Shown here: one piece after another, positions 739 to 17,973 of the stretch
Layout: each line of letters opens with the position of its first letter
Numbering within the stretch: the first letter of the stretch is position 1
NCBI GenBank assembly: GCA_964652095.1
Contig: CAZZAC010000001.1
Span: forward strand, 9,258 to 73,257
Reading direction: 5' to 3'
From: an uncultured Dehalococcoidales bacterium
GTDB lineage: Bacteria > Chloroflexota > Dehalococcoidia > GIF9 > AB-539-J10
Length of the DNA: 64,000 nucleotides
Notes under the pieces: generated by a model
Database searches by the model: none
Told to the model about the DNA's origin: nothing
The model's input: only the letters and a program-made list of their open reading frames with translations
Position numbers and translations under genes: made by a program

Positions 739-857
739 ATCAAAACAATGCATTTTACCCTAGTCACCCCAGTATGTCAATCAGTAGAAAGACAATATTA
801 TGTTTGACAAATAGTAGTAAAACATGATAAGAATATAATATCTTGGTGAGAGAGGAC

Positions 858-1331: not shown

Positions 1332-2381
1332 ATGCAGTACAAAAGGGTTTGTGTTGAGTCTTTTGGTTATGAACTTCCTGAGACTATCGTCACGTCTGTG
1401 AGCCTGGAAGAAAGACTGGCCCCAATATACAACAAATTGAATCTCCCCTATGGACGCTTGGAAATGATGACTGGGATTCGTGAACGGCGATTCTGGGACG
1501 ATGGAGTGACGCCGAGCCAAGCCAGCATAAAGGCAGCAGAAAAAGCCATCAGCAAGTCGGGAGTCAAAAAAGAAGACATCGGTTGCTTGCTTCACACCTC
1601 CGTATCTCGTGATTTCCTAGAGCCAGCGACGGCTACGGTAGTCCACGATTCTTTAGGCCTCCCATCCACAGCTACTATTTTTGACATCTCCAATGCCTGC
1701 CTCGGTTTCATTAACGGCATGGTAACTTTGGCAAATATGATTGAGCTGGGTCAGGTAAAAGCTGGGCTTGTGGTTGGCTGTGAGAGCAGCAAACGACTTA
1801 TTGATGCAACAATCGATAAGGTTTTGAAAGACCCGGACATCACCAGAGAAAAGCTCAAACTCGCCTTTGCCACCTTGACTTTGGGGGCAGGAGCAGCGGC
1901 AGCAGTGTTAACTCACTCCTCCCTATCGCGAGACGGGCATAAACTTCTTGGCGGGGTAACGCGCGCTGCTTCACAGCACAATGATCTTTGTCGTATACAA
2001 GCCGATACCTACTTCTTCGACCCGAGCATTTCGCCTGAGATGTACACAGACTCTAGAGAGCTCCTCAAAAATGGAGCAAAATTGGCGCCTGCCACCTGGG
2101 AGGCCACAAGACAAGAGCTTGGATGGAGGGACTCCGACGTAGATAGGTTTTTTACTCATCAGGTTAGCGCCGTGCATAGTAGACTATTGTTCAAGACCCT
2201 GGGACTGGATAAGGCAAAAGACTTTTCCACTGTAGAATATCTAGGAAACATTGGGTCGGTTTCCCTGCCCATTACCATGGCTATCGGAATTGACCAAGGT
2301 CGCCTTAACCCTGGTGATAAGGTTGCCATGATGGGGATCGGCAGCGGCATAGTCTGTCTTATGTTGGGTCTGGAATGGTAG
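1332..2381 (+). CDS. 3-oxoacyl-ACP synthase III (FabH-like) family condensing enzyme
   Basis: 349 aa. Active-site Cys in ISNACLGF, His in FTHQVS, Asn in YLGNIGSVS. First gene of the FAS-like cluster. Confidence 0.8.
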   Translation: MQYKRVCVESFGYELPETIVTSVSLEERLAPIYNKLNLPYGRLEMMTGIRERRFWDDGVTPSQASIKAAEKAISKSGVKKEDIGCLLHTSVSRDFLEPATATVVHDSLGLPSTATIFDISNACLGFINGMVTLANMIELGQVKAGLVVGCESSKRLIDATIDKVLKDPDITREKLKLAFATLTLGAGAAAAVLTHSSLSRDGHKLLGGVTRAASQHNDLCRIQADTYFFDPSISPEMYTDSRELLKNGAKLAPATWEATRQELGWRDSDVDRFFTHQVSAVHSRLLFKTLGLDKAKDFSTVEYLGNIGSVSLPITMAIGIDQGRLNPGDKVAMMGIGSGIVCLMLGLEW

Positions 2382-2492
2382 AGAAAATGGCCCTAACGAG
2401 ATGAGTTCAGGGAAATACTCCCTCAGACAGCAATGCAACTAGATTTCTTGAAGCCGCTCCGATATCTACGTTTTTGATGGAAGTTTTACCCT

Positions 2493-3743
2493 ATGGTGGC
2501 AAAGAAGCCTAATGAAGCACGAATTGTAATTACCGGGGTTGGCCTGACGGCGCCAAACGGAAATAATCTAGCGGAATTTCGAAAAAGTTTACTTGCTGGC
2601 AAATCCGGGGTACAGAAATTCAACGTCCGCTACATGGGTGAAGTATTGGCTGGTATATGCCACTTCGACCCACTGAAGTATCAAAAAAAGAAGGAATTGC
2701 GTCGGGGAACGAGGGCAGGCTCTATTGCTATCTACTGCGCTCAAGAAGCAATCGCTGATGCCAAATTGGACCTTGCTTGCCTTGATAAATCGAAGATTGG
2801 TATCTACCTTGGGATTACCGAGCATGGCACCGTGGAAACTGAAAACGAAATCTATGAAATTAAGCAATTTGACTATGATGTAAAATATTGGTCGCACCAT
2901 CATAATCCCAGAGTAGTGGCTAATAATCCCGCTGGCGAAGTCACCCTGAATATGGGAATTACCGGACCTCACTACACATTGGGGGCTGCTTGTGCTGGTG
3001 GCAACATTGGACTTACACAGGGCTTGCAAATGCTGCTGCTGAACGAAGTCGATTTAGCCCTAGCTGGTGGCATTTCCGAGAGTACCGGTTCCTTTGGTAT
3101 TTTTGCTGGCTTCAAAAGTGAAGGTGCTTTAGCTTCCCATGCAGACCCTGAGAAGGCATGCCGCCCCTTTGACAAGGATAGAAATGGTGTGGTTGTTTCC
3201 GAAGGCGGCTGCATTTTCGTTCTAGAAAGATTGAGCGATGCCCTTAACAGGGGAGCTAAAATCTACGGTGAAATCGTGGGCTATGCTATCAACTCAGATG
3301 CCACTGACTTTATTTTCCCCGACAAAGACAGACAAGTTGAGTGCATGAAACTTGCTCTTGACAAAGCCGGTATATCCCCCGAAGATATCGATATCATCAA
3401 TACCCATGGGACGGGCACCGTTGAAGGAGACCCTGTAGAGTGTCAGGCAATGAGAGAGGTCTTCGGTGAGCATCTCCATGCCTATATAAACAACACCAAG
3501 AGTTTTATCGGTCATGCTATGGGGGCTGCCGGCGCCTTAGAGTTAGCCGGTAATTTACCTTCTTTTGAAGACTATATTGTCCACCCTACGATCAATCTGG
3601 ATCACTTAGACCCTGAATGTCATCTTAACAACCTGGTTATCAATGAACCAAAAAAGATTGACAAGGTCGACTATATATTGAATAATTCCTTCGGAATGTT
3701 AGGCATCAATTCAGTTGTTATCGCAAAAAGATTTGAGGAATAA
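2493..3743 (+). CDS. beta-ketoacyl-ACP synthase I/II (FabF/FabB-like)
   Basis: 416 aa. Cys in HYTLGAACAGGN; His motifs NTHGTGT and GHAMGAAG are typical of the KAS I/II elongating condensing enzyme. Confidence 0.85.
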   Translation: MVAKKPNEARIVITGVGLTAPNGNNLAEFRKSLLAGKSGVQKFNVRYMGEVLAGICHFDPLKYQKKKELRRGTRAGSIAIYCAQEAIADAKLDLACLDKSKIGIYLGITEHGTVETENEIYEIKQFDYDVKYWSHHHNPRVVANNPAGEVTLNMGITGPHYTLGAACAGGNIGLTQGLQMLLLNEVDLALAGGISESTGSFGIFAGFKSEGALASHADPEKACRPFDKDRNGVVVSEGGCIFVLERLSDALNRGAKIYGEIVGYAINSDATDFIFPDKDRQVECMKLALDKAGISPEDIDIINTHGTGTVEGDPVECQAMREVFGEHLHAYINNTKSFIGHAMGAAGALELAGNLPSFEDYIVHPTINLDHLDPECHLNNLVINEPKKIDKVDYILNNSFGMLGINSVVIAKRFEE

Positions 3744-3781
3744 AGCTGAAGGCATTCTTGGAATAGACAAACGGGGGGTAC

Positions 3782-4033
3782 ATGACCAAGGAACAAATTA
3801 AAGCCACCATCCTAGAAATCATAGCGCAAATCATACCAGACGAAGACCTGAGTAATCTTAAGGGCGATATCCCGCTACGAGAACAAGTGGAACTGGACTC
3901 CATGGACTTCTTAGACATTATTATGGAGCTGCGAAAACGCTACGGCATCGAAGTCCCTGAGGATGACTATATGCAATTAGCCACCTTAGATGGCTCTATA
4001 GCTTATCTGGAGCCACGGATGAAAGAACTTTAA
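3782..4033 (+). CDS. acyl carrier protein
   Basis: 83 aa, acidic, phosphopantetheine attachment motif LDSMDFLDII (DSL-type Ser), immediately downstream of the KAS gene. Confidence 0.85.
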   Translation: MTKEQIKATILEIIAQIIPDEDLSNLKGDIPLREQVELDSMDFLDIIMELRKRYGIEVPEDDYMQLATLDGSIAYLEPRMKEL

Positions 4034-4058
4034 ACTAAAATGGCGTCAACTCTGTTTT

Positions 4059-4130
4059 TCTCTGCGCCGGGTCACTACCAGATTAAGGAAAGCCAGCTCC
4101 AGCAATCCCGGTCGGTACAGTGCGAGAAGT
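4059..4130 (+). repeat. about 70-bp direct repeat, copy A, in the leader of the GLUG gene (tctctgcgccgggtcactaccagattaagg...)
   Basis: About 75% identical to 6406..6476 by eye alignment; the two copies bracket the GLUG gene. Confidence 0.6.
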
Positions 4131-4135
4131 GCAAT

Positions 4136-6385
4136 ATGAACATAACATTTGGTTCGAGGAGACAGCGTGACGTCGCAAGAGCCAGTATCTTTCTGATCAT
4201 GGTAGCCTTAATTACAGGCATGGTAGGCTGTGCTCTTCCTCCTATTCGAATACAGGATTGGTATGACTTGAATGCCGTCAGAGACAACCCAGCCGGTAGC
4301 TACCGTCTGATGAACGACCTCGATTCCACTGCTGCCGGTTATACAAGGCTGGCGAGTAAGACAGCCAACCAAAGAAAGGGCTGGCAGCCGATTGGAACTT
4401 CGGGTAACCCCTTTACCGGGAGTTTCGACGGGCAGGGATACGAGATAAGGGACCTGTTTATCGACCGCACTGACGAAAATGAGGTCGGGCTTTTCGGTCT
4501 TGTTGATGAGGGAGGGGTCATCAAGAATGTTGGAGTGGTGAACGCCGCTGTGGCTGGCAAGCAATATGTTGGCGGTCTGGTGGGAAATAGTTCGGGCACT
4601 GTGAGCAACTCCTATTTCAGCGGCGGCGTGACTGGCGACCAGTGCCTTGGCGGTCTGGTGGGAGGGAATGTCGGCACTGTGAGCAACTCCTACTATAATT
4701 ACGACGAGGTTCTGATCAACGGAGAAAACATGATTACCATTGGAGCTTTGTTCGCTGAAGACTTCGAGCAGTGGCTTGCTAACGATAAGTTTTTGGACGT
4801 CAATCAAAGGCTTTCTCAAGAAAATGGTTGTTATGTGGTGAATGATGTCAGTGATTTTAAAGAGCTGCTCGCCTTTGGTCAGGATAGTTCCCTCAGATTT
4901 AGATTGACACACGATCTGGACTTAGGCAGTGAAGCCAACTTTTACATCCCTTATCTGGCTGGAGAGTTTGATGGCAATGGTCACAAAATCCTGAGCCTGA
5001 CCTTCAACTCTGATTTTGCTTCGCAAGTCGCATTATTCGGATATCTTGCTTCCGGTGGAGAAGTCACTCAACTGGGTGTCGAGAATGTAAACGTAACCGG
5101 CGCTTATCTGGTTGGCGGTCTAGTGGGAGGAAATGATGGCATTGTGAGCAACTCCTATTCCAGCGGCAACGTAACTGGCGATGATTACGTTGGCGGTTTG
5201 ATCGGATATAACTGGAAGGGCACTGTGAACAACTCCTATTGCGGCGGCAGTGTGGCTGGCAAGCGGGATGTCGGTGGTCTGGTGGGGATCAATGGGGGCA
5301 CCTTGACCAACTGCTATTCGAGCAGCAGCATCACCGGCTGGTATTCTGTTGGCGGTCTGGTCGGAATTAATGAAGGCACCGTGACTAACTCCTATTCGAG
5401 TGGCAGTGTCACTGCCTGGTATTCTGTTGGCAGTCTGGTCGGAATTAATGAGGGCAGCTTGAGCAACTCCTATTCGAGCGGCAGCGTCACTGGCTGGTAT
5501 TCTGTTGGCGGTCTGGTCGGAATTAATTCGGAAACTGTGAGCAACTCCTATTCCATCGCCAGCGTGAGTGGCAGGTCGGGTGTTGGCGGTCTGATCGGAA
5601 GTAGTTACGGCACTGTGACGAACTCCTATGCCACAGGCAGCGTGACTGGCGAGCGGGATGTCGGCGGTCTGGTGGGAAGTAATTACGACACTGTGACGAA
5701 CTCCTATGCCACAGACAGCGTGACTGGCGAGTGGAATGTTGGCGGTCTGGTGGGATCTAATTCGGGCACTGTCATCAAGTCCTATTCCACAGGCAGCATG
5801 ACTGGCAACTATTATGTTGGCGGCCTAGCAGGAGGGAATGATGGCACTGTGAGCAACTCCCATTCCACAGGCAACGTGACCGGCAACTATTATGTTAGCG
5901 GTCTGGTGGGATCTAATTCGGGCACTGTGACCAGCTCCTATTCCACGGGCAGCGTGACTGGCTCTTCGATTGTTAGCGGTCTGGTGGGGATCAATGGTTG
6001 GGATGGCACTGTGAGGAACTCCTATTCCACAGGCAGCGTGGCTGGCAGCTATTATGTTGGCGGTCTGGTGGGAGTGAATTTCGGCACAGTCAGCAACTCG
6101 TATTCCAGCGGTAACATGATCGGCGATGAGTATATTGGCGGTCTGGTGGGAGTGAATTGGAGAGGCACTGTGAGCAACTCCTTCTGGGATACCGAAACCA
6201 GCGGACAAGCTACTTCGGCTGGCGGGACAGGCAAGACCACCGCGGAAATGCAAGACAGCGCTACCTTCTTAGCGGCGGCGTGGGACATATGCGCGGTCGG
6301 TCCTGGCGCGACCAACCCCGCTTACACCTGGAATATCGTTCATGAGCAGACCTATCCCTTCCTGAGCTGGCAGTCCGTTGTTTAA
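4136..6385 (+). CDS. GLUG-motif repeat protein, probable secreted lipoprotein (about 16 tandem 21-22 aa repeats YVGGLVGxNxGTVSNSYSxGSVTG)
   Basis: ORF 4040..6385. The likely real start is Met33 (MNITFGSRRQRDVARASIFLIMVALITGMVGC: positive N-region, hydrophobic core, lipobox-like MVGC). The GGLVG...NSY repeat is the GLUG motif known from IgA1-protease-like surface proteins. The C-terminal non-repeat domain is typical of this family. Confidence 0.7.
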   Translation: MNITFGSRRQRDVARASIFLIMVALITGMVGCALPPIRIQDWYDLNAVRDNPAGSYRLMNDLDSTAAGYTRLASKTANQRKGWQPIGTSGNPFTGSFDGQGYEIRDLFIDRTDENEVGLFGLVDEGGVIKNVGVVNAAVAGKQYVGGLVGNSSGTVSNSYFSGGVTGDQCLGGLVGGNVGTVSNSYYNYDEVLINGENMITIGALFAEDFEQWLANDKFLDVNQRLSQENGCYVVNDVSDFKELLAFGQDSSLRFRLTHDLDLGSEANFYIPYLAGEFDGNGHKILSLTFNSDFASQVALFGYLASGGEVTQLGVENVNVTGAYLVGGLVGGNDGIVSNSYSSGNVTGDDYVGGLIGYNWKGTVNNSYCGGSVAGKRDVGGLVGINGGTLTNCYSSSSITGWYSVGGLVGINEGTVTNSYSSGSVTAWYSVGSLVGINEGSLSNSYSSGSVTGWYSVGGLVGINSETVSNSYSIASVSGRSGVGGLIGSSYGTVTNSYATGSVTGERDVGGLVGSNYDTVTNSYATDSVTGEWNVGGLVGSNSGTVIKSYSTGSMTGNYYVGGLAGGNDGTVSNSHSTGNVTGNYYVSGLVGSNSGTVTSSYSTGSVTGSSIVSGLVGINGWDGTVRNSYSTGSVAGSYYVGGLVGVNFGTVSNSYSSGNMIGDEYIGGLVGVNWRGTVSNSFWDTETSGQATSAGGTGKTTAEMQDSATFLAAAWDICAVGPGATNPAYTWNIVHEQTYPFLSWQSVV

Positions 6386-6405
6386 TGCAACTAAAGCTTG
6401 GAGTA

Positions 6406-6476
6406 TCTCTGCGTCCCGTCACTGCCAGATTAAGAAAGTGAGCCGAAGCAATACCGGTGGGTAGAGCGCAGGAAAG
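6406..6476 (+). repeat. about 70-bp direct repeat, copy B, downstream of the GLUG gene (tctctgcgtcccgtcactgccagattaaga...)
   Basis: Paired with 4059..4130; located just upstream of a sigma70-like promoter for the oxidoreductase operon. Confidence 0.6.
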
Positions 6477-6485
6477 GAAATAGAG

Positions 6486-6513
6486 TTGACCCCTTTACCC
6501 TTTGTATTATACT
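6486..6513 (+). promoter_or_regulatory. candidate sigma70-type promoter (TTGACC - 16 nt - TATACT) for the downstream oxidoreductase/FabG/FabZ/FabI/PPTase operon
   Basis: Hexamers read directly in the 256-bp gap 6386..6640; followed by an approximately 125-nt leader containing a short hairpin (gaggattgaaggcttagttagtcctc). Confidence 0.35.
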
Positions 6514-6640
6514 CTATGAACTAGGACTGTGGAAAAACTAAGCTATTACGTGGTGGTAGGCTAGGAACACAAGTTTTTTATCGCATTTTCCCCGAGGATT
6601 GAAGGCTTAGTTAGTCCTCAATTTTGAAAAGAGCCTGACC

Positions 6641-8026
6641 ATGGATTACGATGTTCTAATTATCGGTGCCGGAATGTCTGGTCTTGCCGCTGGCATTAGA
6701 TTGGCCTACTACGGTAAAAGGGTCTGCATCGTGGAAAAACATTATCGCGTTGGGGGACTGAATTCCTTCTACAACCTGGGGGGACGTAAATTCGACGTCG
6801 GCCTTCATGCCATGACCAATTATGTCCCCAAAGGTGTTAGATTAGCACCCTTGCCCAAGCTGCTACGACAGCTCAAACTAAAAGCTGAAGATTTCGCCCT
6901 CTGCCCACAACGGATGTCAGAAATTAAATTTCCCAATAAAACCCTCGGATTTAATAACGACTTCAGCTTTTTTGTCCAAGAGGTCGTCGATAATTTCCCA
7001 ACGCAAGCTGACAACTTCCAAAAACTGCTTAAGACTATTTTCGAATATGATGAACTGAACCTGTATGCCAAACCGATTTCGGCTCGTGAAGTTGTGAGTT
7101 CTATTATTTCCGACCCACTCCTCAGCGATATGATTTTTTGCCCGCCTATGTTTTATGGAAATGCTCAAGAGAATGGCATGGAGTTCGGACAATTTGTTAT
7201 CATGTTTAAGAGTATCTTCTGCGAAGGCCTGGCTCGACCCCAAGCTGGGATACGCCAAATCCTCGATGTGCTGGTGAAAAAATATAAGTCTTGCGGCGGT
7301 GAATTAAAGATGAGGTGCACGGTAACAAGTCTCAAATGTGCTAATGACAGGGTTGAATCAATCTTGCTCGAAAACGGTGAAGTCCTGACAGCCGATAGGA
7401 TACTATCATCCGCTGGTTATGTTGAAACGATGAAACTGTTGACCGACTATGATTCTTCAAAATTAAATTGCCATGTGGGTCAAATTTCATTTGTGGAGTC
7501 TATTCTCATTTTAAATAAAGAGCCCGCTAAAATGGGCCACAACACAACAATGACCTTTTACAACAACTCAGATAGATTTGATCATCGAAAACCTGACGAG
7601 CTAGTCGATGTTTCCAGTGGCGTTATTTGCTGCCCTAATAACTTTCAATTCGAAAATCCTCTGCCGGAGGGCATGATCAGGATAACCAACTTGGCTAATT
7701 TCGACCTCTGGAACAGATTGAGTGAAGAAGAGTACAAAGCCCAGAAAGCTGCCTGGTTGGAAACCACGCTTAAAGAGGTGGTGAAATTTGTGCCCGATTT
7801 TCGCCATTCAATTGTTTTTAGCGATATCTTTACTCCAAAAACGATCCACAAATTCACCGGCCACATAAATGGTGCGGTCTATGGGACACCAAATAAAACC
7901 AAAACGGGAAAGACTCATTTAGACAATCTATTTATCTGCGGCACAGACCAGGGATTCCTGGGAATCGTGGGAGCAATGCTTAGCGGTATCTCCATGGCAA
8001 ATCTTCACGTTCTGCAGAAGACGTAG
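6641..8026 (+). CDS. FAD-dependent oxidoreductase, phytoene desaturase/amine oxidase (CrtI-like) family
   Basis: 461 aa. N-terminal dinucleotide fold [38 protein letters not shown]. Confidence 0.8.
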
Positions 8027-8040
8027 AAAAAGAGAAATCT

Positions 8041-9480
8041 ATGAGCCACGATTGGTCGAAGGATACAAGGTCAGAATACGATGTCATCGTCATTGGAGGT
8101 GGACTGGCGGGATTAACATGTGCCAATATGTTAGCCAGAGGAGGACATTCAGTTTTACTTCTAGAGCAGCACTACAGCCTTGGCGGACTGGCTACCTGGT
8201 TCAAAAGAAAGGGGCACATCTTTGATATCGCCTTACACGGATTTCCAGTTGGTATGATTAAAACCTGTCGTAAATACTGGACGCCTGAAATTGCTAATAT
8301 GATTGTTCAACTCAAAGGGATCAGATTTGACAACCCCCAATTTTCCTTTACCACAACTTATGACAGGGAGGATTTTACACGCGTATTGCAGGAGCGATTC
8401 AAAATACCCCGAGAGAATATTGAAACCTTTTTCAACACAGCGAGAAATATGAATTTCTATGATGACCAAAGTATGACCACGAGAGAATTTTTTGAGAAAT
8501 TCTTTCCTGGCCATGATGATGTTGTCCGCATGTTAATGGAACCGATCACTTATGCCAACGGGTCAACCCTACTAGACGATCCCGCAATAAGTTACGGAAT
8601 TGTGTTCTCCAACTTCATGAGCAAAGGCGTTTATACTGTTCGAGGGGGAACAGACCAGTTTATCGGAAAAATGCGGGAGGAACTTCTAAAAAACGGCGTT
8701 GGTATTCGGACTAAGTGCCTGGTGGAAAAAATCATTATTAAGGATAGAAAGGTTAGCGGGGTAATAGCGAAAAGTGGAAGAGGATATCATTATCATATCA
8801 AGAGTAAGGCTGTTGTCTCCAATGGTAATTTGTTATCAACCATCCATAAACTGGTTGGAGATGAGAACTTTTCTAAAAGCTTCACTGAAGAGGCGAAAAA
8901 GGTGCGCCTCAATAATAGCAGTTGTCAGGTCTATATTGGTATCAAAAAAGGCGAGAGGATTGACTACATTGGGGATTTGCTTTTCACCTCAGAGGCGAAA
9001 AAATTTGATTCTGAAGAACTTTGCAGCAAAAATACTACCAGCCGGACCTTCTCAGTCTACTATCCCCAAATCCGGCCAGGCTCTGATATGTACTCCATTG
9101 TTGCCTCCTCTAATGCCAATTACGACGACTGGGCAAATCTGTCCGAAGAAGAATACCAAGCTTCTAAAGAAAGATTAATTCAACGAACGCTGGATGCTCT
9201 GGAGAAATATGTTCCTAAGATTCGGGATAAGGTAGACCACTTGGAAGCTTCTACTCCAAAGACATTTCAAAGGTATACGCTCCATTTAAATGGTGCCTCT
9301 TTTGGCACCAAATTTGAAGGGTTAAAGGTCAGTATGGGGCTTCCTAAAGAGATAGCGGGACTTTTCCATACTGGCTCAGTGGGGATTATCATGTCAGGTT
9401 GGCTAGGCACAGCTAATTACGGAGTAATTGTTGCCCATGATGTAGACAAATTTCTCTCGGCAGGTGCAAGAAATGTATGA
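8041..9480 (+). CDS. FAD-dependent oxidoreductase, phytoene desaturase (CrtI-like) family, paralog of the preceding gene
   Basis: 479 aa. [37 protein letters not shown]. 14-bp gap to the previous gene. Confidence 0.8.
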
Positions 9481-10213: not shown

Positions 10214-10214
10214 G

Positions 10215-10640
10215 ATGGAGGAGATTCTAAACGCTATACCCCATCGTCCACCATTTCTGTTCGTCGATAGGATCATAGAATTAAGCGGAACAAAAATCAA
10301 AACAACGAAAGAGATAAAGCCTGATGAACCAGTTTTCGCAGGACACTACCCAGGACACCCGATCATGCCCGGGGCACTTATCTGTGAATCTATTTTCCAA
10401 ACAGGCGCAATTCTGCTCTCCAAAATGATGGGCGGTATGGGAGAAGGTATTCCTGTTTTGACCCGAATTAATAACGCCAAGTTCAAGAGTATCGTCAAGC
10501 CCGGCAATATCCTAGATATTGAAGCGGAGCTGGTGGAAAAAGTCAGTAACGCTTATTTTATGAAGGGCAAAGCCTCAGTCGCCGGAAAGACCTCGGTCAC
10601 GGTTGAGTTTACCGTCACCTTAGCTAAAGAGGCACCCTGA
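10215..10640 (+). CDS. beta-hydroxyacyl-ACP dehydratase (FabZ/FabA-like hotdog fold)
   Basis: 141 aa. PHRPPFLFVDRIIEL...GHYPGHPIMPGALICESIFQTGAILL is the FabZ signature. Starts 2 nt after the FabG stop. Confidence 0.8.
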   Translation: MEEILNAIPHRPPFLFVDRIIELSGTKIKTTKEIKPDEPVFAGHYPGHPIMPGALICESIFQTGAILLSKMMGGMGEGIPVLTRINNAKFKSIVKPGNILDIEAELVEKVSNAYFMKGKASVAGKTSVTVEFTVTLAKEAP

Positions 10641-10672
10641 CATATATTGGGAAGGGTGATAAGGAGTAACAT

Positions 10673-11473
10673 ATGGATTTCTTAGACATTGCGGGTAAGA
10701 CTGTTCTTGTTTTTGGGGTAGCTAACAAGAAGAGCGTCGCCTTCTCTATCGGAGAGGTTCTTTCCGAGGCCAAGGCGAATGTAATCTATAGTGTTCGATC
10801 AGCGGCAAGAAAAGAGAGCGTCTCCAAGATTCTTCCTGGTGCTGATATATACGTATGCGATGTGGAACAGGAGCCGGAGATTAAAAAACTGGCCGAGGGC
10901 ATCTCTAAAAAATGTCCCAAACTTCACGGCATCGTTCATTCCATCGCTTTTGCCAATTACGAAGGAAGACTTAAGCCATTTCACGAAACAAAAAGGAAAG
11001 ACTTCCTGCAGTCAATTGATATCTCCTGTTATTCCTTAATCGCTATTGCTAATGCGTTTAAAGACCTATTAGATGTGAAGGCATCTGTAGTCACCATATC
11101 CATCTCGACCACCAAGATGGCAGCCGAACCCTATGGTTTTATGGCGCCGGTAAAAGCTGCCCTGGACTCAACCCTGTGCTTCCTGGCTAAATCCTTCAGT
11201 TCTTTTTCCCAAATCCGATTTAATTCCGTGAATGCCGGACTGTTAAAAACCTCCTCATCGGCAGGGATACCCGGATACTTAGATTATTACCTCTTCGCAG
11301 AACAACTAACCCTACGCAAAAAAGCTCTGACCACTAAAGAAGTAGCTAATATCGTAGCGTTTCTTTTAAGCGAGCGGTCCAGTGGCATTAATGCCCAGGG
11401 CATCGTTGTAGATGCTGGAATGTCAATCAACTACTTTGATAAAGACATTATCAAGAAGGCAATAAGGTTTTAG
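10673..11473 (+). CDS. enoyl-ACP reductase (FabI-like SDR)
   Basis: 266 aa. N-terminal [16 protein letters not shown] resembles the FabI GVASxxSIAxGIA motif. Y-x6-K ([11 protein letters not shown]) catalytic pair. Confidence 0.7.
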
Positions 11474-11480
11474 TAAGCCC

Positions 11481-12056
11481 ATGACTTTGTTTCCTGTAGT
11501 CATGCCAGTTATTGAAGCTGGACATAAACCCTCAGGGAAAGAAAAGGTAGACCATCTAAGCCGAATTGCTCGAGAGGCGCTAAAGGTGAGTGCCGAAAGA
11601 AGCCGAGTGAGGCTTGGAGAACTGCTCAAGGACGGAAAGGGTGTACCATGTCCAGTTGCTGGCATTTATTGGTCTATCTCCCATAAACCTAAATACGTGG
11701 CGGCAGTGGTTAGCGAGGATAAGGTCGGGATCGATATTGAAGAAATGAAGCCCCGGGCTGAATCACTCTTTGCTCATGTGGCGAGTGACGAGGAATGGGA
11801 GCTACAGGAGAAATCCTGGGTTGCCTTTTTCCGCTATTGGACGGCGAAAGAAGCCGCTCTGAAGGTTATCGAAATTGGCATAAGCGGATTAAAGACCTGC
11901 CGGATAATCTCAGTCCCCGATGAGAATCATATTACTCTGGACTATAAGGGGCAATTTTTTCTGGTGGAGCAACTACGATACAAGAACCATATTATTTCCG
12001 TCCTCAAAGACGACAACGAAATTGATTGGATAATTCTGGAAGACTTTAAACCCTGA
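11481..12056 (+). CDS. 4'-phosphopantetheinyl transferase (Sfp/EntD-type)
   Basis: 191 aa. ISHKPKYVAAVVS, GIDIEE, WTAKEAALK motifs. Starts 8 nt after the FabI-like stop, and would activate the cluster ACP. Confidence 0.75.
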   Translation: MTLFPVVMPVIEAGHKPSGKEKVDHLSRIAREALKVSAERSRVRLGELLKDGKGVPCPVAGIYWSISHKPKYVAAVVSEDKVGIDIEEMKPRAESLFAHVASDEEWELQEKSWVAFFRYWTAKEAALKVIEIGISGLKTCRIISVPDENHITLDYKGQFFLVEQLRYKNHIISVLKDDNEIDWIILEDFKP

Positions 12057-12136
12057 GCTCTAGAGCCTAAACAAATTCAAAAGCCCAATTCAAAGTGGTA
12101 GGTCACTAGATATTTTTAGTGTTTCGAACTTTATAT

Positions 12137-15100
12137 TTAGGATCTAACTGCGCAGTATCTCTCAGTGTACAGTTTCGCCTGATGTATAAAGGCCTCTATT
12201 CTTGTCTCTGCGTTGGTTTGCTTGAGCCCATCGTATATCATATTGAGCACAGGAATGCGGTTGTGCTCCCTTTGTATCCCTCTATAAATAGCAGTGGATA
12301 CAGTCCCATAAAGGCAATTTAAAATGACGAGATTAGCTATACCACTGCAGCCCTGCATAGCATAATTTTTCGCCTTAGCCACATTTACAGTTACTACTGG
12401 GTCTATATCATCACTTACATAAGGAGCGGCAAGCGTAACCACATCCTCAACCCTGGGGATCCTGCAATCTCGAAGCTCGTCTTTCATCATTCCCTCAATC
12501 TTTCCCTTCCAGTACATAAACGGAAACCTTCTAAGATAGTAATAAAGGGCAGAGAGATATTTTCTGCTAGAGAAGTGAGTCTCCGGATATACCTCATTAA
12601 AATATACTAAGTAATCTGTAGTAGTCGGCCCAAGCCTCACTTCAGCACCCAGTGACTCAAACTCTCTGATTATATCGTTGTTAGACCAGGAGTTCATACA
12701 GGTATAGAACTCTCCCACGATACCTATAATTGGTCTATCTTCATTCTTAGTTGGAATCTCGTCCATAGCTGCTATTGAGCGATTTAAAGCCTGCCAAAAT
12801 TTCCCGTTGATAATTCCAGAGGCTATCTCCTCTATGGCTTGTGCATAAACCCTGTCACTCTCCCCTTTATTTACTTCATAAGGGCGAATATGAAGTAACT
12901 TCTTTAATAAGACATCCGTAGCTAGCCAACCCTTCCAGACAGCCTCCGCCCACTTTAATCCAAATAATTCGGTGCATTCATCATGGCGGATAGAGGCAAC
13001 CGGGGCAACTATAGGGATATGCCCCAAACCTAATCTCTTGAGAACCAATTTCTGAGACAAGGCATATTGACTCAACCTGCATGAACCATCGAAGTTAAGC
13101 ATCATAAATGCTGCCCTATCCGGATCAAAATCTTCAAGTTGGGTCATCTTGACTAAATCCCCTGTGGTGAGTAAATAGGGATGACATTCCTTGCCAGAGA
13201 CGTATCTTCTTCCTATCTCCTCCGATAATTCATCAGGCTCGGGCAAAACCCGGGCATCTAGACCCACGGAGTTGAGAGCAGCAGCCCAAATAACGGAGTG
13301 CCCAGAAACATAGGGGATATAAAAGGTTTTATCCAGTTTCCTAAGCCTCTTTGTTGGTTTGAAGATACTTATCCCACCAGAGGGTCTAATCACACTGAGG
13401 TCTTCTTGCCTTTCCTCCTTTACCCGCGTTTTCGGTCTACCAAGGGTATCAAGAAAGGCCTCAACCCTGGTGGTCATTCCAGCATCACCGCTGTGCTCAT
13501 CTACCTCCAGAAGTAGATAAGGATCCTCTTCCATGGTTTCCTCAAGATACTTCCAGAAGAAAGCATCAGGACCGCAGCCATAATTGGTGATCATTATAGG
13601 ATTCAAGCTGGGGTTATTCTTAGCTATCATCGCTGCCCGCAGAAGATTTTGTTCATTCTTCCAAACCAAGTTGGAGTAATGAGGTGGCAGCTCAACCCTA
13701 TCCAGCGGCAGTAGGTCAAATGGTATGGCCAGCATTCCTAGATGTCGCAACTTCTTGGCAATATTTAGATTCAGCGCCAAATCATGAACATTGTAAGGCT
13801 TTCCTATTACCACCACGGCTTCATTATCCTTCGTAAGGGTCTTAAGTATCTCTTGACCCCTTTCTCGACGAATCCTTTCGAATTCGTCTTGAGCCTTAAC
13901 CGCAGCGGTTATGGCTGAGGCAATTTCCCCCGTTTCTTTTCCGAATTCCCTGCCTATCTTCTTCATTTCCCTCTTCAGGTTCTCTTTTTCCTTTGCCATA
14001 AATATGCTAGGACTTATGATTTTTGCTCTATCTTTAAAAGCAGGTCTAAGCATGAAGGGGATACCCTGAATCAAGGGGCAGTTGTAACTCCTGGCTACAT
14101 CATCACTATCCTTCTCCAGGTCAATAATGCTGGGCAGGAATATACGGTCAACACCTTTTTCAATGAGATTTGCTACATGCCCATAGGCAATCTTCACCGG
14201 ATAGCAGGCTTCAGCTAAAACCTCTTGAAGTCCCTTATGAATGAGCCTCCTATTAGTTTTATCGGACAGCACCACTTTAACTCCCAACTCCCCAAAAAAC
14301 GCAGCCCACAATGGAAACTGCTCAAAGAACATGAGCACTCGTGGAATGCCTATTACCGGAGAATTCGGGGCAAATTCATCCTCCTTATAATAGTTCATAA
14401 GCATTTCCTCTCGCTCTTTAAAGAGATCGGGAAGAACCTGGTCAGCGGTTTTTTCGCCTTTCAGCTCATATCTATCACAAATACCACCGTAAAAGGATTT
14501 GAATTCGCCTCCGATGGATATCTTTTTTATGTCGCAGTGGTTGGGGCAATGCTGGCATTCAAAGGATTTGACCTCATATTCCCGGTCTGTGAGGTCAAAC
14601 CCGACAAAATCGCTTTTCCCATCCCCATGTCTCCTCTCCATGGCAATCAACGCAGCACCTATGGCACCGGTTACATTGTAGTTCTGCGGAACCGTAATCT
14701 TCTTCCCCAAAATATTTTCGAAGGCAGCCACTACACTCTCATTTCCGGCAACGCCTCCCTGAAAACATATCCTCTCGCCAATTTTCTTATTCCCTACCAC
14801 CTTTTCAATGTAATTATTGGCAATAGAGTAGGAAAGCCCCGCTAAGAGATCGACTTTCGGTGAACCTACCTGCTGGTGGTGTATTAAATCAGATTCCATA
14901 AAAACAGTGCACCGGGTCCCCAAATCAACAGGAGCTTTCGAGCTAAGAGCAAGCTTGCTAAACTCCTCCTCAATATTTATGTCCAATCTATCAGCCTGTT
15001 CCTGGAGAAAGGAGCCAGTTCCTGCAGCACAAACCTTGTTCATCTCAAAATCTACCACTGCGCCATTCTTCAGGCGGATATATTTTGAATCCTGCCCCCC

Positions 15101-16381
15101 TATTTCAAATATGGTGTCTACGGTCTCATCGATATCCAGTGTGGCCTTAGCCTGAGCAGTGATCTCATTAACTACTACATCAGCGCCGATGAAGTCCCCT
15201 GTAGAATAACGTGCACTGCCAGTGGTCGCCACAGCTTGGACTTCAATAAGGTCCTTTATTTCATGACCTATGTCTTTTAATCCTTTCTTAACTGACTCAA
15301 TGGGATTGCCCTCGGTCATGAGATACTTCATCGCCAGCAGCTTCTTGTTTTCATCCAGAATAACGATATTTGTACTAACAGCGCCAACATCAACCCCTAT
15401 ATACACCTTATTCTTTTGTTGCTTTCTAAGAATAGGACACTCATCCAATGGAGTAGAACCATCCCCGTTATAAATCAATCTCCTTAAATGCCCTACCTCA
15501 GCTTCACTGGCCTTTTTAGCTAAATAGCGCCTCAAGACCTCCGTTGCTACTTGAAGTCTGATAGGTGTGTCACTTTGTCTCTCCGAGGCCGTGATTGCCG
15601 CTCCGAAGGCTCCCATGACCTTAAAATACTCGGGAATAATCAATTCCCCAGGCTTGAGTTCTAGCAGTTCTTCAAAAGCCTTAGCCACCCCTTTATTGGC
15701 AGCGACGCCACCTTGAAAGGCTACTGGCTTTACGAATCTCCTCCCTTTACCTAAATTGCTTATGTAATTTCTAGCCAAGGCATAACAAAGCCCAGCTATT
15801 ATTTCTTCCTGTGATGTCCCCTCTTGCTGCAAATGGACCATGTCAGATTTGGCAAAGACACTGCACCTGCCCGCAATGGTAGCCGGCTTTTCAGCTCTCG
15901 TGGCTAAACTGCTGAACTCATCTATGGAAATCCCCAGACGATATGCCTGTTGATCAAGGAAAGAGCCAGTTCCCGCAGCGCATATCTCATTAAGGGCATG
16001 GTCAACGATGACTGTCCTTCTACTTTTTTCATCCCACTCCAGGAAAATCAGCTTTGAGTCCTGCCCTCCAATCTCGATAACTGTCCTAACCTCAGGATGG
16101 AAGTATGCGACAGCCTTTGCCTGAGTAATAATTTCATTTTCTTTATCTACACCCATGACATCAGCTATAAGGTTACGTCCGCTGCCCGTGCATACAGCCC
16201 CACATAGTTCAGGAAAATCTTTTTCGAGACCCTCAAAAACATCAATTAATACTGGAATAGGTTGCCCCCTTGTCCTCTCATAGACGCTTTCGAGGAGTCG
16301 GAGTTTCTCATCAATTACAGCTATGTTTAAGCTGACCGAGCCTATATCTATTCCCATAAAGGTTTTGCTTTGGCTTGTCAT
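12137..16381 (-). CDS. giant fusion protein: two BadF/BadG/BcrA/BcrD-type (HgdC-like) ATPase activase domains plus a C-terminal 2-hydroxyacyl-CoA dehydratase D-component-like (HgdB-like/DUF2229) region
   Basis: ORF 12137..16459. Two actin-fold ATPase modules (FMGIDIGSVSLNIAVID..., VYIGVDVGAVSTNIVILD...) are followed by a Cys-containing dehydratase-like region (CQHCPNHCD...). Start placed at Met27 (16381) because it forms an ATGA overlap with the stop of the upstream SRPBCC gene. Confidence 0.8.
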   Translation of the reverse strand: MTSQSKTFMGIDIGSVSLNIAVIDEKLRLLESVYERTRGQPIPVLIDVFEGLEKDFPELCGAVCTGSGRNLIADVMGVDKENEIITQAKAVAYFHPEVRTVIEIGGQDSKLIFLEWDEKSRRTVIVDHALNEICAAGTGSFLDQQAYRLGISIDEFSSLATRAEKPATIAGRCSVFAKSDMVHLQQEGTSQEEIIAGLCYALARNYISNLGKGRRFVKPVAFQGGVAANKGVAKAFEELLELKPGELIIPEYFKVMGAFGAAITASERQSDTPIRLQVATEVLRRYLAKKASEAEVGHLRRLIYNGDGSTPLDECPILRKQQKNKVYIGVDVGAVSTNIVILDENKKLLAMKYLMTEGNPIESVKKGLKDIGHEIKDLIEVQAVATTGSARYSTGDFIGADVVVNEITAQAKATLDIDETVDTIFEIGGQDSKYIRLKNGAVVDFEMNKVCAAGTGSFLQEQADRLDINIEEEFSKLALSSKAPVDLGTRCTVFMESDLIHHQQVGSPKVDLLAGLSYSIANNYIEKVVGNKKIGERICFQGGVAGNESVVAAFENILGKKITVPQNYNVTGAIGAALIAMERRHGDGKSDFVGFDLTDREYEVKSFECQHCPNHCDIKKISIGGEFKSFYGGICDRYELKGEKTADQVLPDLFKEREEMLMNYYKEDEFAPNSPVIGIPRVLMFFEQFPLWAAFFGELGVKVVLSDKTNRRLIHKGLQEVLAEACYPVKIAYGHVANLIEKGVDRIFLPSIIDLEKDSDDVARSYNCPLIQGIPFMLRPAFKDRAKIISPSIFMAKEKENLKREMKKIGREFGKETGEIASAITAAVKAQDEFERIRRERGQEILKTLTKDNEAVVVIGKPYNVHDLALNLNIAKKLRHLGMLAIPFDLLPLDRVELPPHYSNLVWKNEQNLLRAAMIAKNNPSLNPIMITNYGCGPDAFFWKYLEETMEEDPYLLLEVDEHSGDAGMTTRVEAFLDTLGRPKTRVKEERQEDLSVIRPSGGISIFKPTKRLRKLDKTFYIPYVSGHSVIWAAALNSVGLDARVLPEPDELSEEIGRRYVSGKECHPYLLTTGDLVKMTQLEDFDPDRAAFMMLNFDGSCRLSQYALSQKLVLKRLGLGHIPIVAPVASIRHDECTELFGLKWAEAVWKGWLATDVLLKKLLHIRPYEVNKGESDRVYAQAIEEIASGIINGKFWQALNRSIAAMDEIPTKNEDRPIIGIVGEFYTCMNSWSNNDIIREFESLGAEVRLGPTTTDYLVYFNEVYPETHFSSRKYLSALYYYLRRFPFMYWKGKIEGMMKDELRDCRIPRVEDVVTLAAPYVSDDIDPVVTVNVAKAKNYAMQGCSGIANLVILNCLYGTVSTAIYRGIQREHNRIPVLNMIYDGLKQTNAETRIEAFIHQAKLYTERYCAVRS

Positions 16382-16797
16382 TCCGATCCCTCGATCCTTG
16401 TTTTCACTGCCAGCGCAATCTCGGCTGAGACCTCTTGCCCACCGCGGCGCGCCAGCCAAGCTAAAGCCCCTGAAACGTCGCCGCCAATGGTAACCTTCGT
16501 CTTGCCATTTACAGGTTCCAGAGTGTAGAAGCGTGTCAAATTGGTGCCCAGGGCTTTTCCTTGCATGACCACATTCCGCTCTGGGACAAACTCGGTAATC
16601 GTCATCAATAATTTAACCGTAAGCCTGCTTACCTTAGCTGTGACAGAAAGCTGCGAGCCTACTGTCAAAGGCCCCTTAGAGAGCCTCTCAATCTTCTTGA
16701 TGGACGGCATCCATTGGGGCCACTCTTCAAGCTTGTCTACCAGCGCCCAGACTTTCTCGGCAGGGGCATTAATGTCGATGCTACTCTCAAACCTCAT
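16378..16797 (-). CDS. SRPBCC (Bet v1/START-like, polyketide cyclase/dehydrase family) protein
   Basis: 139 aa. N-terminus INAPAEKVWALVDKLEEWPQWMP is typical of SRPBCC ligand-binding proteins. Stop overlaps the start of the giant fusion gene (translational coupling). Confidence 0.7.
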   Translation of the reverse strand: MRFESSIDINAPAEKVWALVDKLEEWPQWMPSIKKIERLSKGPLTVGSQLSVTAKVSRLTVKLLMTITEFVPERNVVMQGKALGTNLTRFYTLEPVNGKTKVTIGGDVSGALAWLARRGGQEVSAEIALAVKTRIEGSE

Positions 16798-17040
16798 GCC
16801 CGTCGAACTCCTCCTTCACGTAGTATCCTACAAAGATATTATACATCATTATACAATCTAAGAGATTAGCCCAATAAGTGTATCCTCTACGTCTCTCTAA
16901 TTCATCAGAGCAGTGAAAGCGTGCCGGGGTGAAATTGGGCACATCGTACTTTTCTTGAGGCTAGATTGTCACCAGTGATAAAATAAGTCTTAAATGGTAC
17001 CTCAAAATCGGCCTAGTATCCTGTGAAACTCAATCGGCAC

Positions 17041-17973
17041 ATGAGCTTCAGTAGATCTGATATCATCCGACCTCCAAGTGAATGGAAAAGCTATTTTCTC
17101 CCTTTAACCAGCGGGTGCTCCAACAACACCTGCACTTTCTGTGGATACTATGGCTCGAAGCTTCAAATACGAGATGTCGATGACATCAAGAGTGAAATAG
17201 ATGCCGTAGCCTTATTCACTCGGAGTGGCATTCAAATTCCTGACGTTTCTGAGGTGGTATATGCCGTGGCTCAAGGTTGGGATGGCAAGAGGATATTTCT
17301 CCAGGATGGCGATGCCCTTGTTTACCCCTTCCCTAAATTAAGGGAGGTTCTCCAGTACTTGAATGAGAAACTGCCCGGTGTCGAAAGGATTGGTACATAT
17401 GCCACGCCACAGGATATCTTGCGCAGGAACTCCGATGAACTTAAGGAATTAAGACAGCTCAAGTTAGGTATTTTTTATACAGGGCTCGAGACCGGTGATG
17501 ATGAACTGCTCCAGAAGATAGATAAAGGGGTAAGTTCACATCAGATAGTCGAGGCGGGAAAGAAAGTGAAGGAAGCCGGGATAAGCTTTTCTGTGACGAT
17601 AATTTTAGGACTTGACGGTATCGAGGGAAGCAAGGAACACGTGCTTGAGACAGCTAAGGTGCTCACTGAGATTGACCCGGATTATGTCGGAGCTTTGACT
17701 TTGACCCTCGTCCCCGATACCCCGCTCTATGAGCGGTGGGAACGGAATGAATTCCATCCTCTTTCTCCTTTCCAATCCTTGGAGGAACTGAGGTTAATTA
17801 TAGAGAATTCCAACTTTACCAATTGCTTCTTTAGCTCAATGCATGCCTCAAACTATCTTTCCGTCCGCGGCAAGTTGCCGCAGGATAGAGAGAGGATGCT
17901 TAAGGAACTAAAAGTAGTTTTGGCAGCAAGAGACCCCTCTCTACTCAGGCCTGAATTTCTCAGAGGTCTATGA
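17041..17973 (+). CDS. radical SAM family protein (non-canonical CX4CX2C cluster motif)
   Basis: ORF 17023..17973. Motif GCSNNTCTFCGY occurs near the N-terminus where the CxxxCxxC motif normally sits. Start taken at MSFSRSD. Divergent from the SRPBCC/fusion operon. Confidence 0.65.
   Translation: MSFSRSDIIRPPSEWKSYFLPLTSGCSNNTCTFCGYYGSKLQIRDVDDIKSEIDAVALFTRSGIQIPDVSEVVYAVAQGWDGKRIFLQDGDALVYPFPKLREVLQYLNEKLPGVERIGTYATPQDILRRNSDELKELRQLKLGIFYTGLETGDDELLQKIDKGVSSHQIVEAGKKVKEAGISFSVTIILGLDGIEGSKEHVLETAKVLTEIDPDYVGALTLTLVPDTPLYERWERNEFHPLSPFQSLEELRLIIENSNFTNCFFSSMHASNYLSVRGKLPQDRERMLKELKVVLAARDPSLLRPEFLRGL

Follow-up and report, generated by a model that had tools for sequence, protein, structure and literature searches.

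An OleA-type thiolase heads a conserved fatty-acid-synthesis-like cluster with two CrtI-fold flavoenzymes in Dehalococcoidia: a candidate accessory lipid pathway

Why would a bacterium keep two flavoproteins of the phytoene desaturase (CrtI) family inside a set of type II fatty-acid synthesis (FAS) genes? The question is raised by a locus of an uncultured Dehalococcoidales bacterium (Chloroflexota; GenBank assembly GCA_964652095.1, contig CAZZAC010000001.1, positions 9,258 to 73,257), and the whole 64,000-nucleotide stretch analyzed, whose coordinates are used throughout, is called the window here. A preceding sequence-only reading had described the locus as a dedicated lipid cluster, and all genes that it named were recovered in their places by an open reading frame (ORF) map combined with Pfam and NCBIfam profile searches, on which the gene identities below are based. 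We propose that the locus specifies an accessory pathway that would feed tailored, probably unsaturated chains, bound to a dedicated acyl carrier protein (ACP), to an OleA-type thiolase; taken as a whole, this proposal seems to us evenly balanced between right and wrong. For the comparison of gene neighborhoods we used tblastn and ORF clustering in 80+ genomes, with loci labelled L001 to L094. In a scan of species-representative genomes the second flavoprotein, Crt2, matched at least 593 loci, and the 80 best were compared; only testable loci were scored, and linkage was judged within 10 kb. The window proteins also recur, identical, on JGI metagenome contigs.

The gene at the head of the cluster (1332..2381, + strand) encodes a protein with the beta-ketoacyl-ACP synthase III (KAS-III) fold, which had been taken for a FabH-like starter synthase. 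This assignment had to be replaced. The closest structures in the PDB are those of Xanthomonas campestris OleA (252 bits, E 8e-74; 3ROW, 3S1Z-3S23, 4KTI-4KU5, 5VXD-I and 6B2R-U), whereas the best FabH structure scores 82 bits. Profile searches agree: the protein reaches 458 bits on NF006720 (cut-off 285) and stays below cut-off on the FabH models (124-136 bits vs 249-292). It is 41.6% identical to X. campestris OleA over 334 residues (41.6-43% across alignments) and 26% identical to E. coli FabH; the FabH sequence used is 26% identical to X. campestris OleA, close to the published 27% (PMC7064751). Equivalents of the catalytic residues Cys143, His285 and Asn315 are present in the motifs NACL, HQVS and GNIG, as seen in the alignment to 3ROW and in a three-way alignment. 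Glu117, the residue that performs the non-decarboxylative condensation in OleA (PMC7064751), is kept as well: the window protein and X. campestris OleA share the motif LEP, whereas E. coli FabH has AFP, with phenylalanine in this position. The OleA pattern of Surger 2020, EPxx[AS]x(14,18)DxxNACL (PMC7158056), is matched by the window protein with EPATATVVHDSLGLPSTATIFDISNACL and is found in 11 of 15 orthologous ORFs. FabH identity is thus ruled out by the PDB search, Glu117 and the alignments, and by these sequence features the protein is an OleA-type thiolase of the kind that condenses two chains head-to-head in a non-decarboxylative Claisen reaction. This identity reframes the locus as a predicted head-to-head condensation pathway.

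How far does the locus resemble known Ole systems? Active OleA proteins are known at identities as low as 26-29%, and only 251 of 920 OleA-like sequences are flanked by other ole genes (Smith et al., PMC7064751); the cluster belongs to the OleA-like sequences without such flanking genes. If oleB, oleC and oleD are sought at ≤~5 kb from oleA, as was done by Surger 2020 and Smith 2020, none is found in the window, and in five relatives of the block oleC and oleD homologs are adjacent, with no oleB seen there. As in the OleABCD systems of Xanthomonas, Shewanella and Micrococcus, the four catalytic residues and the published sequence pattern are all present in OleA, and in planctomycete and Nitrospirota relatives the FAS/flavoenzyme block shares an operon with OleC-like and OleD-like genes. 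The differences are that the classical pathways draw on general FAS or on a Pfa synthase, whereas here OleA stands with a private type II FAS set, an ACP, a 4'-phosphopantetheinyl transferase (PPTase) and two flavoenzymes, and that downstream it seems to be partnered by a PlsA/Ger-like radical enzyme and an SRPBCC protein or, in sister lineages, an acyltransferase resembling wax-ester/triacylglycerol synthases (WS/DGAT).

OleA is preceded by a small conserved ORF (843..1259, + strand; a JGI gene call), which the sequence-only reading overlooked. Wherever a Dehalococcoidia locus has OleA, a homolog of this ORF (43-85% identical) lies directly 5' of it, also in the rearranged loci L086, L090, L091 and L093. 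The predicted protein has 133-138 residues with about five 16-residue repeats (K..P..L), and it matches no Pfam or NCBIfam model. Its coding strand is somewhat ambiguous because the minus strand has an overlapping ORF (764-1276) with about the same degree of conservation.

Downstream of OleA, on the same strand, follow an elongating beta-ketoacyl-ACP synthase (KS; 2493..3743), the ACP (3782..4033), the flavoproteins Crt1 (6641..8026) and Crt2 (8041..9480), a FabG-type 3-oxoacyl-ACP reductase (9464/9473..10213), a FabZ-type dehydratase (10215..10640), a FabI-like enoyl reductase (10673..11473) and an Sfp-type PPTase (11481..12056). The earlier description of this set as complete and tightly packed was half right. 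The junctions are tight (FabG and FabZ are separated by 1 nt, FabI and the PPTase by 7 nt, Crt1 and Crt2 by 14 nt, and Crt2 overlaps FabG), but a gene with GLUG repeats splits the cluster, and the set is not complete because it lacks FabD, the malonyl-CoA:ACP transacylase. Neither FabD nor acetyl-CoA carboxylase (ACC) genes turned up in the cluster, the window ORFs that were scanned, the syntenic loci or the co-conserved genes.

Several of these proteins are divergent members of their families. FabG (302 bits on TIGR01830 vs 297.75) and FabZ (123.5 bits on NF000582 vs 113; PF07977, with an additional ApeI-like match) are the only two of the FAS-like set that pass their NCBIfam thresholds. The ACP, which has PF00550 and the DSM motif with its serine, is below every NCBIfam ACP model (best 40.8 vs 66 bits, within a range of cut-offs of 66-84). 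The FabF-like KS, with both the N- and C-terminal Pfam ketoacyl-synt domains, scores 320 bits on TIGR03150 (cut-off 494) and 236 bits against the best FabF match in the PDB; its Cys-His-His triad is visible in the sequence, and its identity to the Nitrospinota and Planctomycetota counterparts is 65-73%. The FabI-like protein reaches 169 bits on the best FabI model (cut-off 362), retains the Y-x6-K dyad in an alignment to 1ULU and is 57-73% identical across phyla. The PPTase (PF01648) is below cut-off on the EntD, HetI and AcpT models, and its gene remains next to OleA even in loci without the KS-FabI block. Because the ACP, KS and FabI-like proteins fall below their cut-offs, the PPTase is Sfp-type, FabD is missing and the head gene is OleA, the cluster has the look of an accessory system, and the view that this locus is dedicated to something other than housekeeping synthesis stands: judged from these features, it is very probably an accessory lipid pathway rather than core FAS.

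Both flavoproteins carry the GxGxxG motif for binding flavin adenine dinucleotide (FAD) and the domains PF01593 (Amino_oxidase) and PF13450 (NAD_binding_8), and they are paralogs, as proposed earlier, with a mutual identity of 23% (E 9e-31). Crt1 is a CrtI/CrtISO-family protein, with carot_isom as its best NCBIfam match (96 vs 587 bits), and Crt2 has a CrtI/CrtD fold: its AlphaFold2 model (pLDDT 86) is closest to CrtD (4REP, TM 0.74) and CrtI (4DGK). On TIGR02734 (cut-off 238 bits) Crt1 scores 67.9 and Crt2 88.5 bits, and the best sub-threshold profile matches of the two are carotenoid isomerase and CrtD. The FAD Rossmann motif and the CrtI-type three-domain fold are shared with the family of CrtI, CrtD and CrtISO, whereas the scores are 4-6x below every carotenoid cut-off and the genomic context is fatty-acid, not isoprenoid.

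Crt2 is the most conserved marker of the block. It is 86-95% identical in >120 protein clusters, and its family is small and sharply bounded at 50% clustering, where about ten sequences of full length exceed 350 bits and the full-length ones that follow drop to ~30-34% identity. Relatives of Crt2 occur in at least 593 species-representative genomes. Among the best 80 loci, those of Dehalococcoidia come first (64-86% identity), followed at 63-68% by Nitrospinota, Nitrospirota, Phycisphaerae, Pirellulales, Planctomycetaceae and one metagenome-assembled genome (MAG) of Muiribacteriota; the Planctomycetaceae include Gimesia and two complete Planctomicrobium genomes. Crt1 is co-conserved with Crt2 in 42 loci.

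The grouping of these genes is far beyond chance, as dozens of genomes, spread over several phyla, share the gene order. The block KS-ACP-Crt1-Crt2-(FabG)-FabZ-FabI is common to Dehalococcoidia, Nitrospinota and Planctomycetota: with FabG included, it is found in Dehalococcoidia (8/8 to 10/10 testable loci) and in the majority of Nitrospinota loci, where it is nearly always complete and lies 3' of cdsA-dxr-ispF, and it is also present in Phycisphaerae, Pirellulales and Gimesia. FabG itself is kept in 10/10 testable Dehalococcoidia and 13/13 Nitrospinota loci, and FabZ is the gene most often retained beside Crt2. In all testable Dehalococcoidia loci the full series OleA-KS-ACP-Crt1-Crt2-FabG-FabZ-FabI-PPTase is whole (5/5 to 10/10 per gene), with OleA heading the operon in 5/5. 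Co-conservation of the oxidoreductases with the FAS-like genes, which the sequence-only reading had named as a check, is therefore borne out: Crt1 and Crt2 are present in every testable Dehalococcoidia locus. Two variations were noted: L091 has a second OleA and KS pair inside it (17911-20250), and in L090 a gene of the MCRA fatty-acid hydratase family (23350-24248) converges on it.

A second line of evidence comes from loci outside Chloroflexota. Five of them, from Phycisphaerae, Nitrospirota, Pirellulales and Planctomycetaceae (L020, L044, L069, L074 and L082), have OleC-like and OleD-like genes directly 5' of the KS gene, with overlapping stop and start codons. The OleC-like protein is an AMP-binding protein that scores 714 bits on NF006754 (cut-off 478) and 609-621 bits on two OleC (olefin beta-lactone synthetase) models, below their strict cut-offs. 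The OleD-like protein is a reductase of the 3-beta-hydroxysteroid dehydrogenase type with 392-415 bits on two 2-alkyl-3-oxoalkanoate reductase (OleD) models, also below the strict cut-offs. OleA homologs were found in the same loci or nearby (L044, L064, L074 and L084); OleB was not seen beside OleC and OleD in these block-bearing relatives. We had considered the ether-lipid elb cluster for the AMP-binding and reductase genes of the planctomycete loci and dropped it once the genes matched OleC and OleD; a sphingolipid (Spt/CerR) route was dropped for want of an aminotransferase in the block.

On the strand opposite to the cluster lie two genes, which the sequence-only reading had also counted as parts of the locus. 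One encodes a protein of 1414 residues (12137..16381, - strand), which fuses two HgdC-type activators to an iron-sulfur module of the DCCP/HgdAB/BcrBC superfamily (two PF01869, or BcrAD_BadFG, domains and PF09989, or DUF2229); the other encodes a START-like lipid-binding protein of the SRPBCC family (16378..16797, - strand; PF10604 and PF03364) and overlaps the start of the fusion gene by 4 nt, in agreement with the coupling proposed earlier. The two activator halves, also recognized earlier, match MbdQ, HgdC, the HadI-type activator and DCCP-R. For the C-terminal half, PF06050 (E 3.6e-4, 20.6 bits) and PF09989 (E 0.096) give short matches that are weak and below cut-off; this half also has seven invariant cysteines and a CxxCxxxC...C motif after the second ATPase, and its weak structural model (pLDDT 61) has DCCP, HadC, BzdNO or MbdON as all ten of its best PDB matches. 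With two PF01869 domains and PF09989, the fusion has the BBD core of PlsA/PlsR-Ger, for which the "BBD plus small H/D" architecture has been published (PMC13159169; bioRxiv 10.64898/2026.06.23.733905), and its gene is 4245 bp long, compared with 4248 bp for the fused plsA gene of E. faecalis (PMC12838417). By its core domains and by length, both compared with published descriptions, we read the fusion as a protein with the architecture of PlsA/Ger, the anaerobic ether-lipid reductases. Unlike what is described for PlsA/Ger, it is coupled to an SRPBCC gene and tracks OleA and the PPTase; its substrate may differ from a glycerolipid ester.

Homologs of the fusion (>100 clusters, 52-94% identity, ~1412-1465 residues) occur in Dehalococcoidia and other Chloroflexota, and their genes adjoin OleA in three different arrangements. 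In the window, L008 and L088/89 the fusion gene, with SRPBCC, converges on FabI-PPTase; in L086/87 and L093 it converges on the series small ORF-OleA-PPTase, with no KS-FabI block within 10 kb; and in L090 and L091 it is co-directional and directly 5' of small ORF-OleA-KS-...-PPTase. This repeated adjacency argues for a functional tie of the fusion to OleA, the PPTase and the small ORF. The claim that the opposite-strand genes belong to the locus survives in part. In sister lineages the fusion is replaced: in L005 (5081-7791), L007, L009 and L013 its place 3' of SRPBCC is filled by a condensation-domain protein, which stands alone and matches WS/DGAT weakly, and by a 435-residue DUF362-like protein, and in L013 the two genes are co-directional with FabI. 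SRPBCC is kept in L005, L007, L008, L013 and L088 and lies beside a 52%-identical fusion in L092.

How might these proteins work together? The Sfp-type PPTase would convert the dedicated ACP to its holo form, and the KS, FabG, FabZ and FabI-like proteins would elongate a chain on it, with malonyl loading borrowed from a FabD encoded elsewhere. Crt1 and Crt2 would alter the chain during or just after its synthesis, most likely by introducing or isomerizing double bonds without oxygen. They might dehydrogenate the chain, or they might isomerize the trans-2-enoyl intermediate made by FabZ and so carry it past FabI; either reaction would result in O2-free unsaturation. OleA would then join two chains head-to-head to form a long 2-alkyl-3-keto acid, as it is known to draw acyl chains from its cognate ACP in vivo (PMC6463001). 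In the planctomycete and Nitrospirota relatives the neighboring OleC and OleD homologs would carry this intermediate to the beta-lactone. OleB is needed for the final decarboxylation to the long-chain olefin. Because no OleB, OleC or OleD was found in the window, downstream processing there is probably unlike that of the classical pathway. OleA without OleBCD yields ketones (PMC6463001), and in the window the intermediate might decarboxylate to a long-chain ketone or pass, perhaps via SRPBCC, to the ATP-driven radical enzyme of the PlsA/Ger family; in sister lineages the WS/DGAT-like acyltransferase would stand in the position of the fusion. Of the single steps that we infer, OleA-type condensation is probably part of the pathway, action of the flavoenzymes on the ACP-bound chain seems to us as well supported as it is doubtful, and the processing of the product by the fusion is a tentative suggestion.

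A chain factory that serves OleA from its own ACP has a precedent in marine Gammaproteobacteria, where a Pfa synthase is combined with OleABCD and its polyunsaturated product passes straight from the synthase's ACP to OleA (PMC6463001). On the one hand, the principle is the same; on the other hand, the Pfa synthase is a type I-like multidomain megasynthase with a FabA-like dehydratase, whereas the block consists of discrete type II proteins, and its double bonds would come from CrtI-fold flavoenzymes.

A number of observations weigh against the proposed pathway. The Nitrospinota block has no OleA (0/7) and nearly no PPTase (1/11) within 10 kb, and many Planctomycetaceae carry Crt2 alone, sometimes with FabZ; thus, the block and OleA are separable. 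In L039, L068 and ~25 other Planctomycetaceae loci Crt2 (63-67%) is either alone or accompanied by FabZ only, with no Crt1, KS or ACP within 10 kb, and it may therefore act independently of the block. Enzymes of the CrtI type classically extend existing conjugation, we know of no member of the family with demonstrated activity on acyl-ACP, and Crt1 and Crt2 are far below cut-off on all named CrtI, CrtD and CrtISO models. The fusion is missing from L005, L007, L009 and L013 and is unlinked in L085, a complete genome, and in L092, where it lies beside SRPBCC only. In the 64-kb window tblastn with the OleC-like and OleD-like proteins of L044 and L020 found no counterparts, no OleB was found there, and there is no alpha/beta-hydrolase among the scanned window ORFs; the classical Ole pathway is thus incomplete here.

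Could the cluster be the core FAS of this organism? It has KS, ACP, FabG, FabZ and FabI-like genes in one operon that adjoins the housekeeping genes rpsU and yqeY, Crt2 and its neighbors are 86-95% identical among many Dehalococcoidia contigs, and no second fab set was seen in the window or in extensions of ~8-10 kb on both sides. Yet the ACP fails the AcpP models, the KS and FabI-like proteins are similarly far from theirs, FabD and ACC are lacking, the initiating enzyme is OleA-type rather than FabH, and the PPTase is Sfp-type instead of AcpS. In Planctomycetota and Nitrospinota the block is present as an add-on, and Dehalococcoidia of the L086/L093 type hold OleA and the PPTase without the block nearby. 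We therefore regard a housekeeping role as improbable. A second alternative is that the block works on its own and makes unsaturated (or differently modified) fatty acids for membrane lipids, for example as an O2-independent alternative to FabA/FabB, with OleA, the fusion and SRPBCC acting on other substrates and the fusion making plasmalogen or alkyl-ether glycerolipids as PlsA/Ger do. The Nitrospinota block, without OleA and beside the housekeeping genes cdsA-dxr-ispF, fits this view, as do carotenoid isomerase among the best NCBIfam matches of Crt1 and Crt2, since flavin-dependent isomerization is O2-free, the fusion with the BBD architecture and length of characterized PlsA/Ger and with weak H/D matches, and the presence of plsY and gpsA in the window. 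The latter genes, which lie together with der at 54364-57333 (- strand), represent the ordinary acyl-phosphate route to glycerolipids, so the organism makes standard ester lipids too. We nevertheless consider this alternative unlikely: a dedicated divergent ACP with an Sfp-type PPTase would be unusual for a membrane route, each testable Dehalococcoidia locus has OleA at the head of its operon, OleC and OleD share the operon in Nitrospirota and planctomycete loci, and the fusion tracks OleA and the PPTase even without the block.

The sequence-only reading had noted a likeness to proposed ladderane clusters and had limited it to gene inventory, a caution that proved sound. ACP, FabZ, KS, CrtI-like and radical S-adenosylmethionine (SAM) genes are indeed shared with the anammox candidates kuste3603-3608 (PMC4790861), and of the proteins compared none is closer to Crt2 than kuste3607 (28% identity, E 1e-30). 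The queries kuste3336 and kuste3607 were the truncated sequences in the supplement of Javidpour 2016, with ~400 residues of each protein compared; kuste3336 is 24-25% identical to Crt1. Against 63-68% for true cross-phylum orthologs, values of 24-28% led us to reject orthology to the anammox flavoenzymes. The FAS clusters of K. stuttgartiensis and D. psychrophila (Rattray 2009; Javidpour 2016) are similar in that FAS and CrtI-like genes are clustered. For these clusters an O2-free desaturation of acyl chains has been proposed, leading to anaerobic polyunsaturated fatty acids, to polyunsaturated hydrocarbons (C31:8/C31:9 in organisms without a Pfa synthase) and to ladderanes. They differ in that the anammox clusters have several radical SAM and SAM-methyltransferase genes, non-canonical KS paralogs and no FabI, whereas the window cluster has OleA, a FabI-like protein and a PPTase; function is predicted in both systems. 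SAM methyltransferases, a B12-radical SAM enzyme and a non-canonical KS are not in our cluster, and its radical SAM neighbor has no B12 domain and shows no co-conservation. Many non-anammox bacteria have the block, and ladderanes are known from anammox bacteria only (PMC2649909). A cluster for ladderanes or other cyclized lipids of the anammox kind is therefore extremely improbable. Very improbable, too, is a type II polyketide synthase (PKS)-like cluster for a pigment or signal of the aryl-polyene, flexirubin or dialkylresorcinol type. It is suggested by the matches of FabZ to ApeI-like and ApeP-like models, by the 249 bits of FabG on the flexirubin FlxB model, by weak DarB/StlD matches of the KAS-III protein and by the nearby SRPBCC "polyketide cyclase" protein. 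These matches are far below cut-off (FlxB 249 vs 340; DarB 20-37 vs 450-550), the KAS-III protein is clearly OleA-type, the single KS has no chain-length-factor partner, there is no ammonia-lyase, thioesterase or methyltransferase, and a FabI-type enoyl reductase implies reduced chains. The models for dialkylresorcinol (DarB/StlD), flexirubin, aryl-polyene and cispentacin were all rejected as far below cut-off.

Two further genes of the locus are better left outside the proposed OleA pathway. The radical SAM gene (17023..17973, + strand), which had been taken as part of the locus, is present in the window, L005, L008 and L009 only and is missing in L007, L013, L088 and L090, which retain the cluster; we therefore do not count it as core, and it is probably just loosely linked. 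Its product scores 59.9 bits on PF04055 (cut-off 29.5; residues 27-203) and has, as noted before, the motif CSNNTCTFC, which is CX4CX2C rather than the canonical CX3CX2C. The JGI gene call starts 243 nt later, at 17266, and loses this motif; the longer, GTG-start ORF is supported by Pfam. Searches of the PDB and NCBIfam gave core matches of the Elp3, HpnJ and MnmL type that are too weak for an assignment.

The GLUG-repeat gene (4040/4136-6385, + strand, in an inserted segment at 4040..6550; PF07581 x5), missed in the sequence-only reading, lies between ACP and Crt1. It encodes a surface- or lipoprotein-like protein of 749-781 residues with an N-terminal membrane or lipobox-like segment. Only the same-population contigs L001-L004 have it, copies of a 32-nt direct repeat lie on both sides (4059-4090 and 6406-6437), and the ~95-nt ACP-Crt1 spacer of the relatives is still intact at ~6555-6640, just 5' of Crt1; the gene is therefore best read as a recent insertion and not as a pathway gene. 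The segment that remains 3' of the gene has a sigma-70-like site (6486-6513). L088/L089 have a different insertion of three genes (ATP-grasp_5, an NDP-forming CoA ligase and Peptidase_M24) at the same junction, which looks like an insertion hot spot. The spacer folded as RNA is not significant (z-score -1.04), and tRNA and Rfam scans of the window gave no match.

Farther downstream, a PhsA-like molybdopterin oxidoreductase (below cut-off), a 4Fe-4S protein, a nitroreductase and a 1275-residue Ser/Thr-kinase/AAA_16 protein (19439-27422) lie between DUF362 (18107-19048) and DUF1847 (27589-28197) genes; since the latter two are adjacent in L005 and L009, this region is an insertion relative to the relatives. 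A set at 29714-34823 (- strand), also found beside the L088 cluster, comprises a short-chain dehydrogenase/reductase, a 340-residue protein that matches no family and a pair of thiolase-family proteins (431 and 421 residues), and it looks like a beta-oxidation or acetoacetyl-type set. At 60490-64000 and beyond (L094, 8621-12836) are two HGD-D subunits (447 and 388 residues) and two BcrAD_BadFG ATPases (284 and 264 residues), a set of the benzoyl-CoA-reductase or 2-hydroxyacyl-CoA-dehydratase type that is independent of the 1414-residue fusion.

Can the OleA pathway be connected to a known product? Planctomyces (Gimesia) maris is said to make C31:9, for which Rattray's remark on planctomycetes gives partial support only. 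D. psychrophila and planctomycetes contain C31:8/C31:9 hydrocarbons, D. psychrophila has no PKS-type genes for polyunsaturated fatty acids, and Rattray et al. 2009 proposed a FAS route with phytoene-desaturase-like enzymes (PMC2649909). In planctomycetes, pfa-like clusters are described for Gemmata and P. limnophilus only (PMC3098273), and oleC is present in MAGs of PVC bacteria, Nitrospinaceae and Deltaproteobacteria (PMC10176705), the groups that carry the block. A more specific reading would combine these facts: the block would be a type II, O2-independent synthase of polyunsaturated chains and the source of the C31:8/C31:9 precursors, in which CrtI-fold flavoenzymes would do the double-bond chemistry of the FabA-like domains of Pfa synthases; it would provide C16:4-type precursors for the ole+/pfa- planctomycetes, Desulfotalea and Nitrospina; and in Dehalococcoidia the fusion with its SRPBCC carrier would replace OleBCD and lead to a new class of head-to-head-derived lipid. 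With all its parts taken jointly, we consider this reading rather unlikely.

Taken singly, Ole pathways, PlsA/Ger and enzymes of the CrtI family are all known, and the idea of polyunsaturation by FAS with phytoene-desaturase-like enzymes dates from 2009. Our literature searches found no description of the block, of its fusion to ole genes or of the OleA/PlsA-like pairing in Dehalococcoidia, and searches that paired Dehalococcoidia with OleA, or with FAS plus phytoene desaturase, gave nothing relevant. Public annotation needs correction in two places, where "3-oxoacyl-ACP synthase III" stands for the OleA homolog and "CoA activase" for the fusion. If the proposed pathway is true, it would offer a candidate answer to how C31:8/C31:9 are formed without a Pfa synthase, a gap noted for Desulfotalea and planctomycetes in 2009 and, in the literature searched, not closed since. 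It would also mean a new anaerobic lipid chemistry, in which CrtI-fold flavoenzymes act on ACP-bound fatty chains, and it would link the abundant uncultured Dehalococcoidia of sediments to long-chain neutral or ether lipids, with relevance to sedimentary biomarkers and cryptic hydrocarbon cycling.

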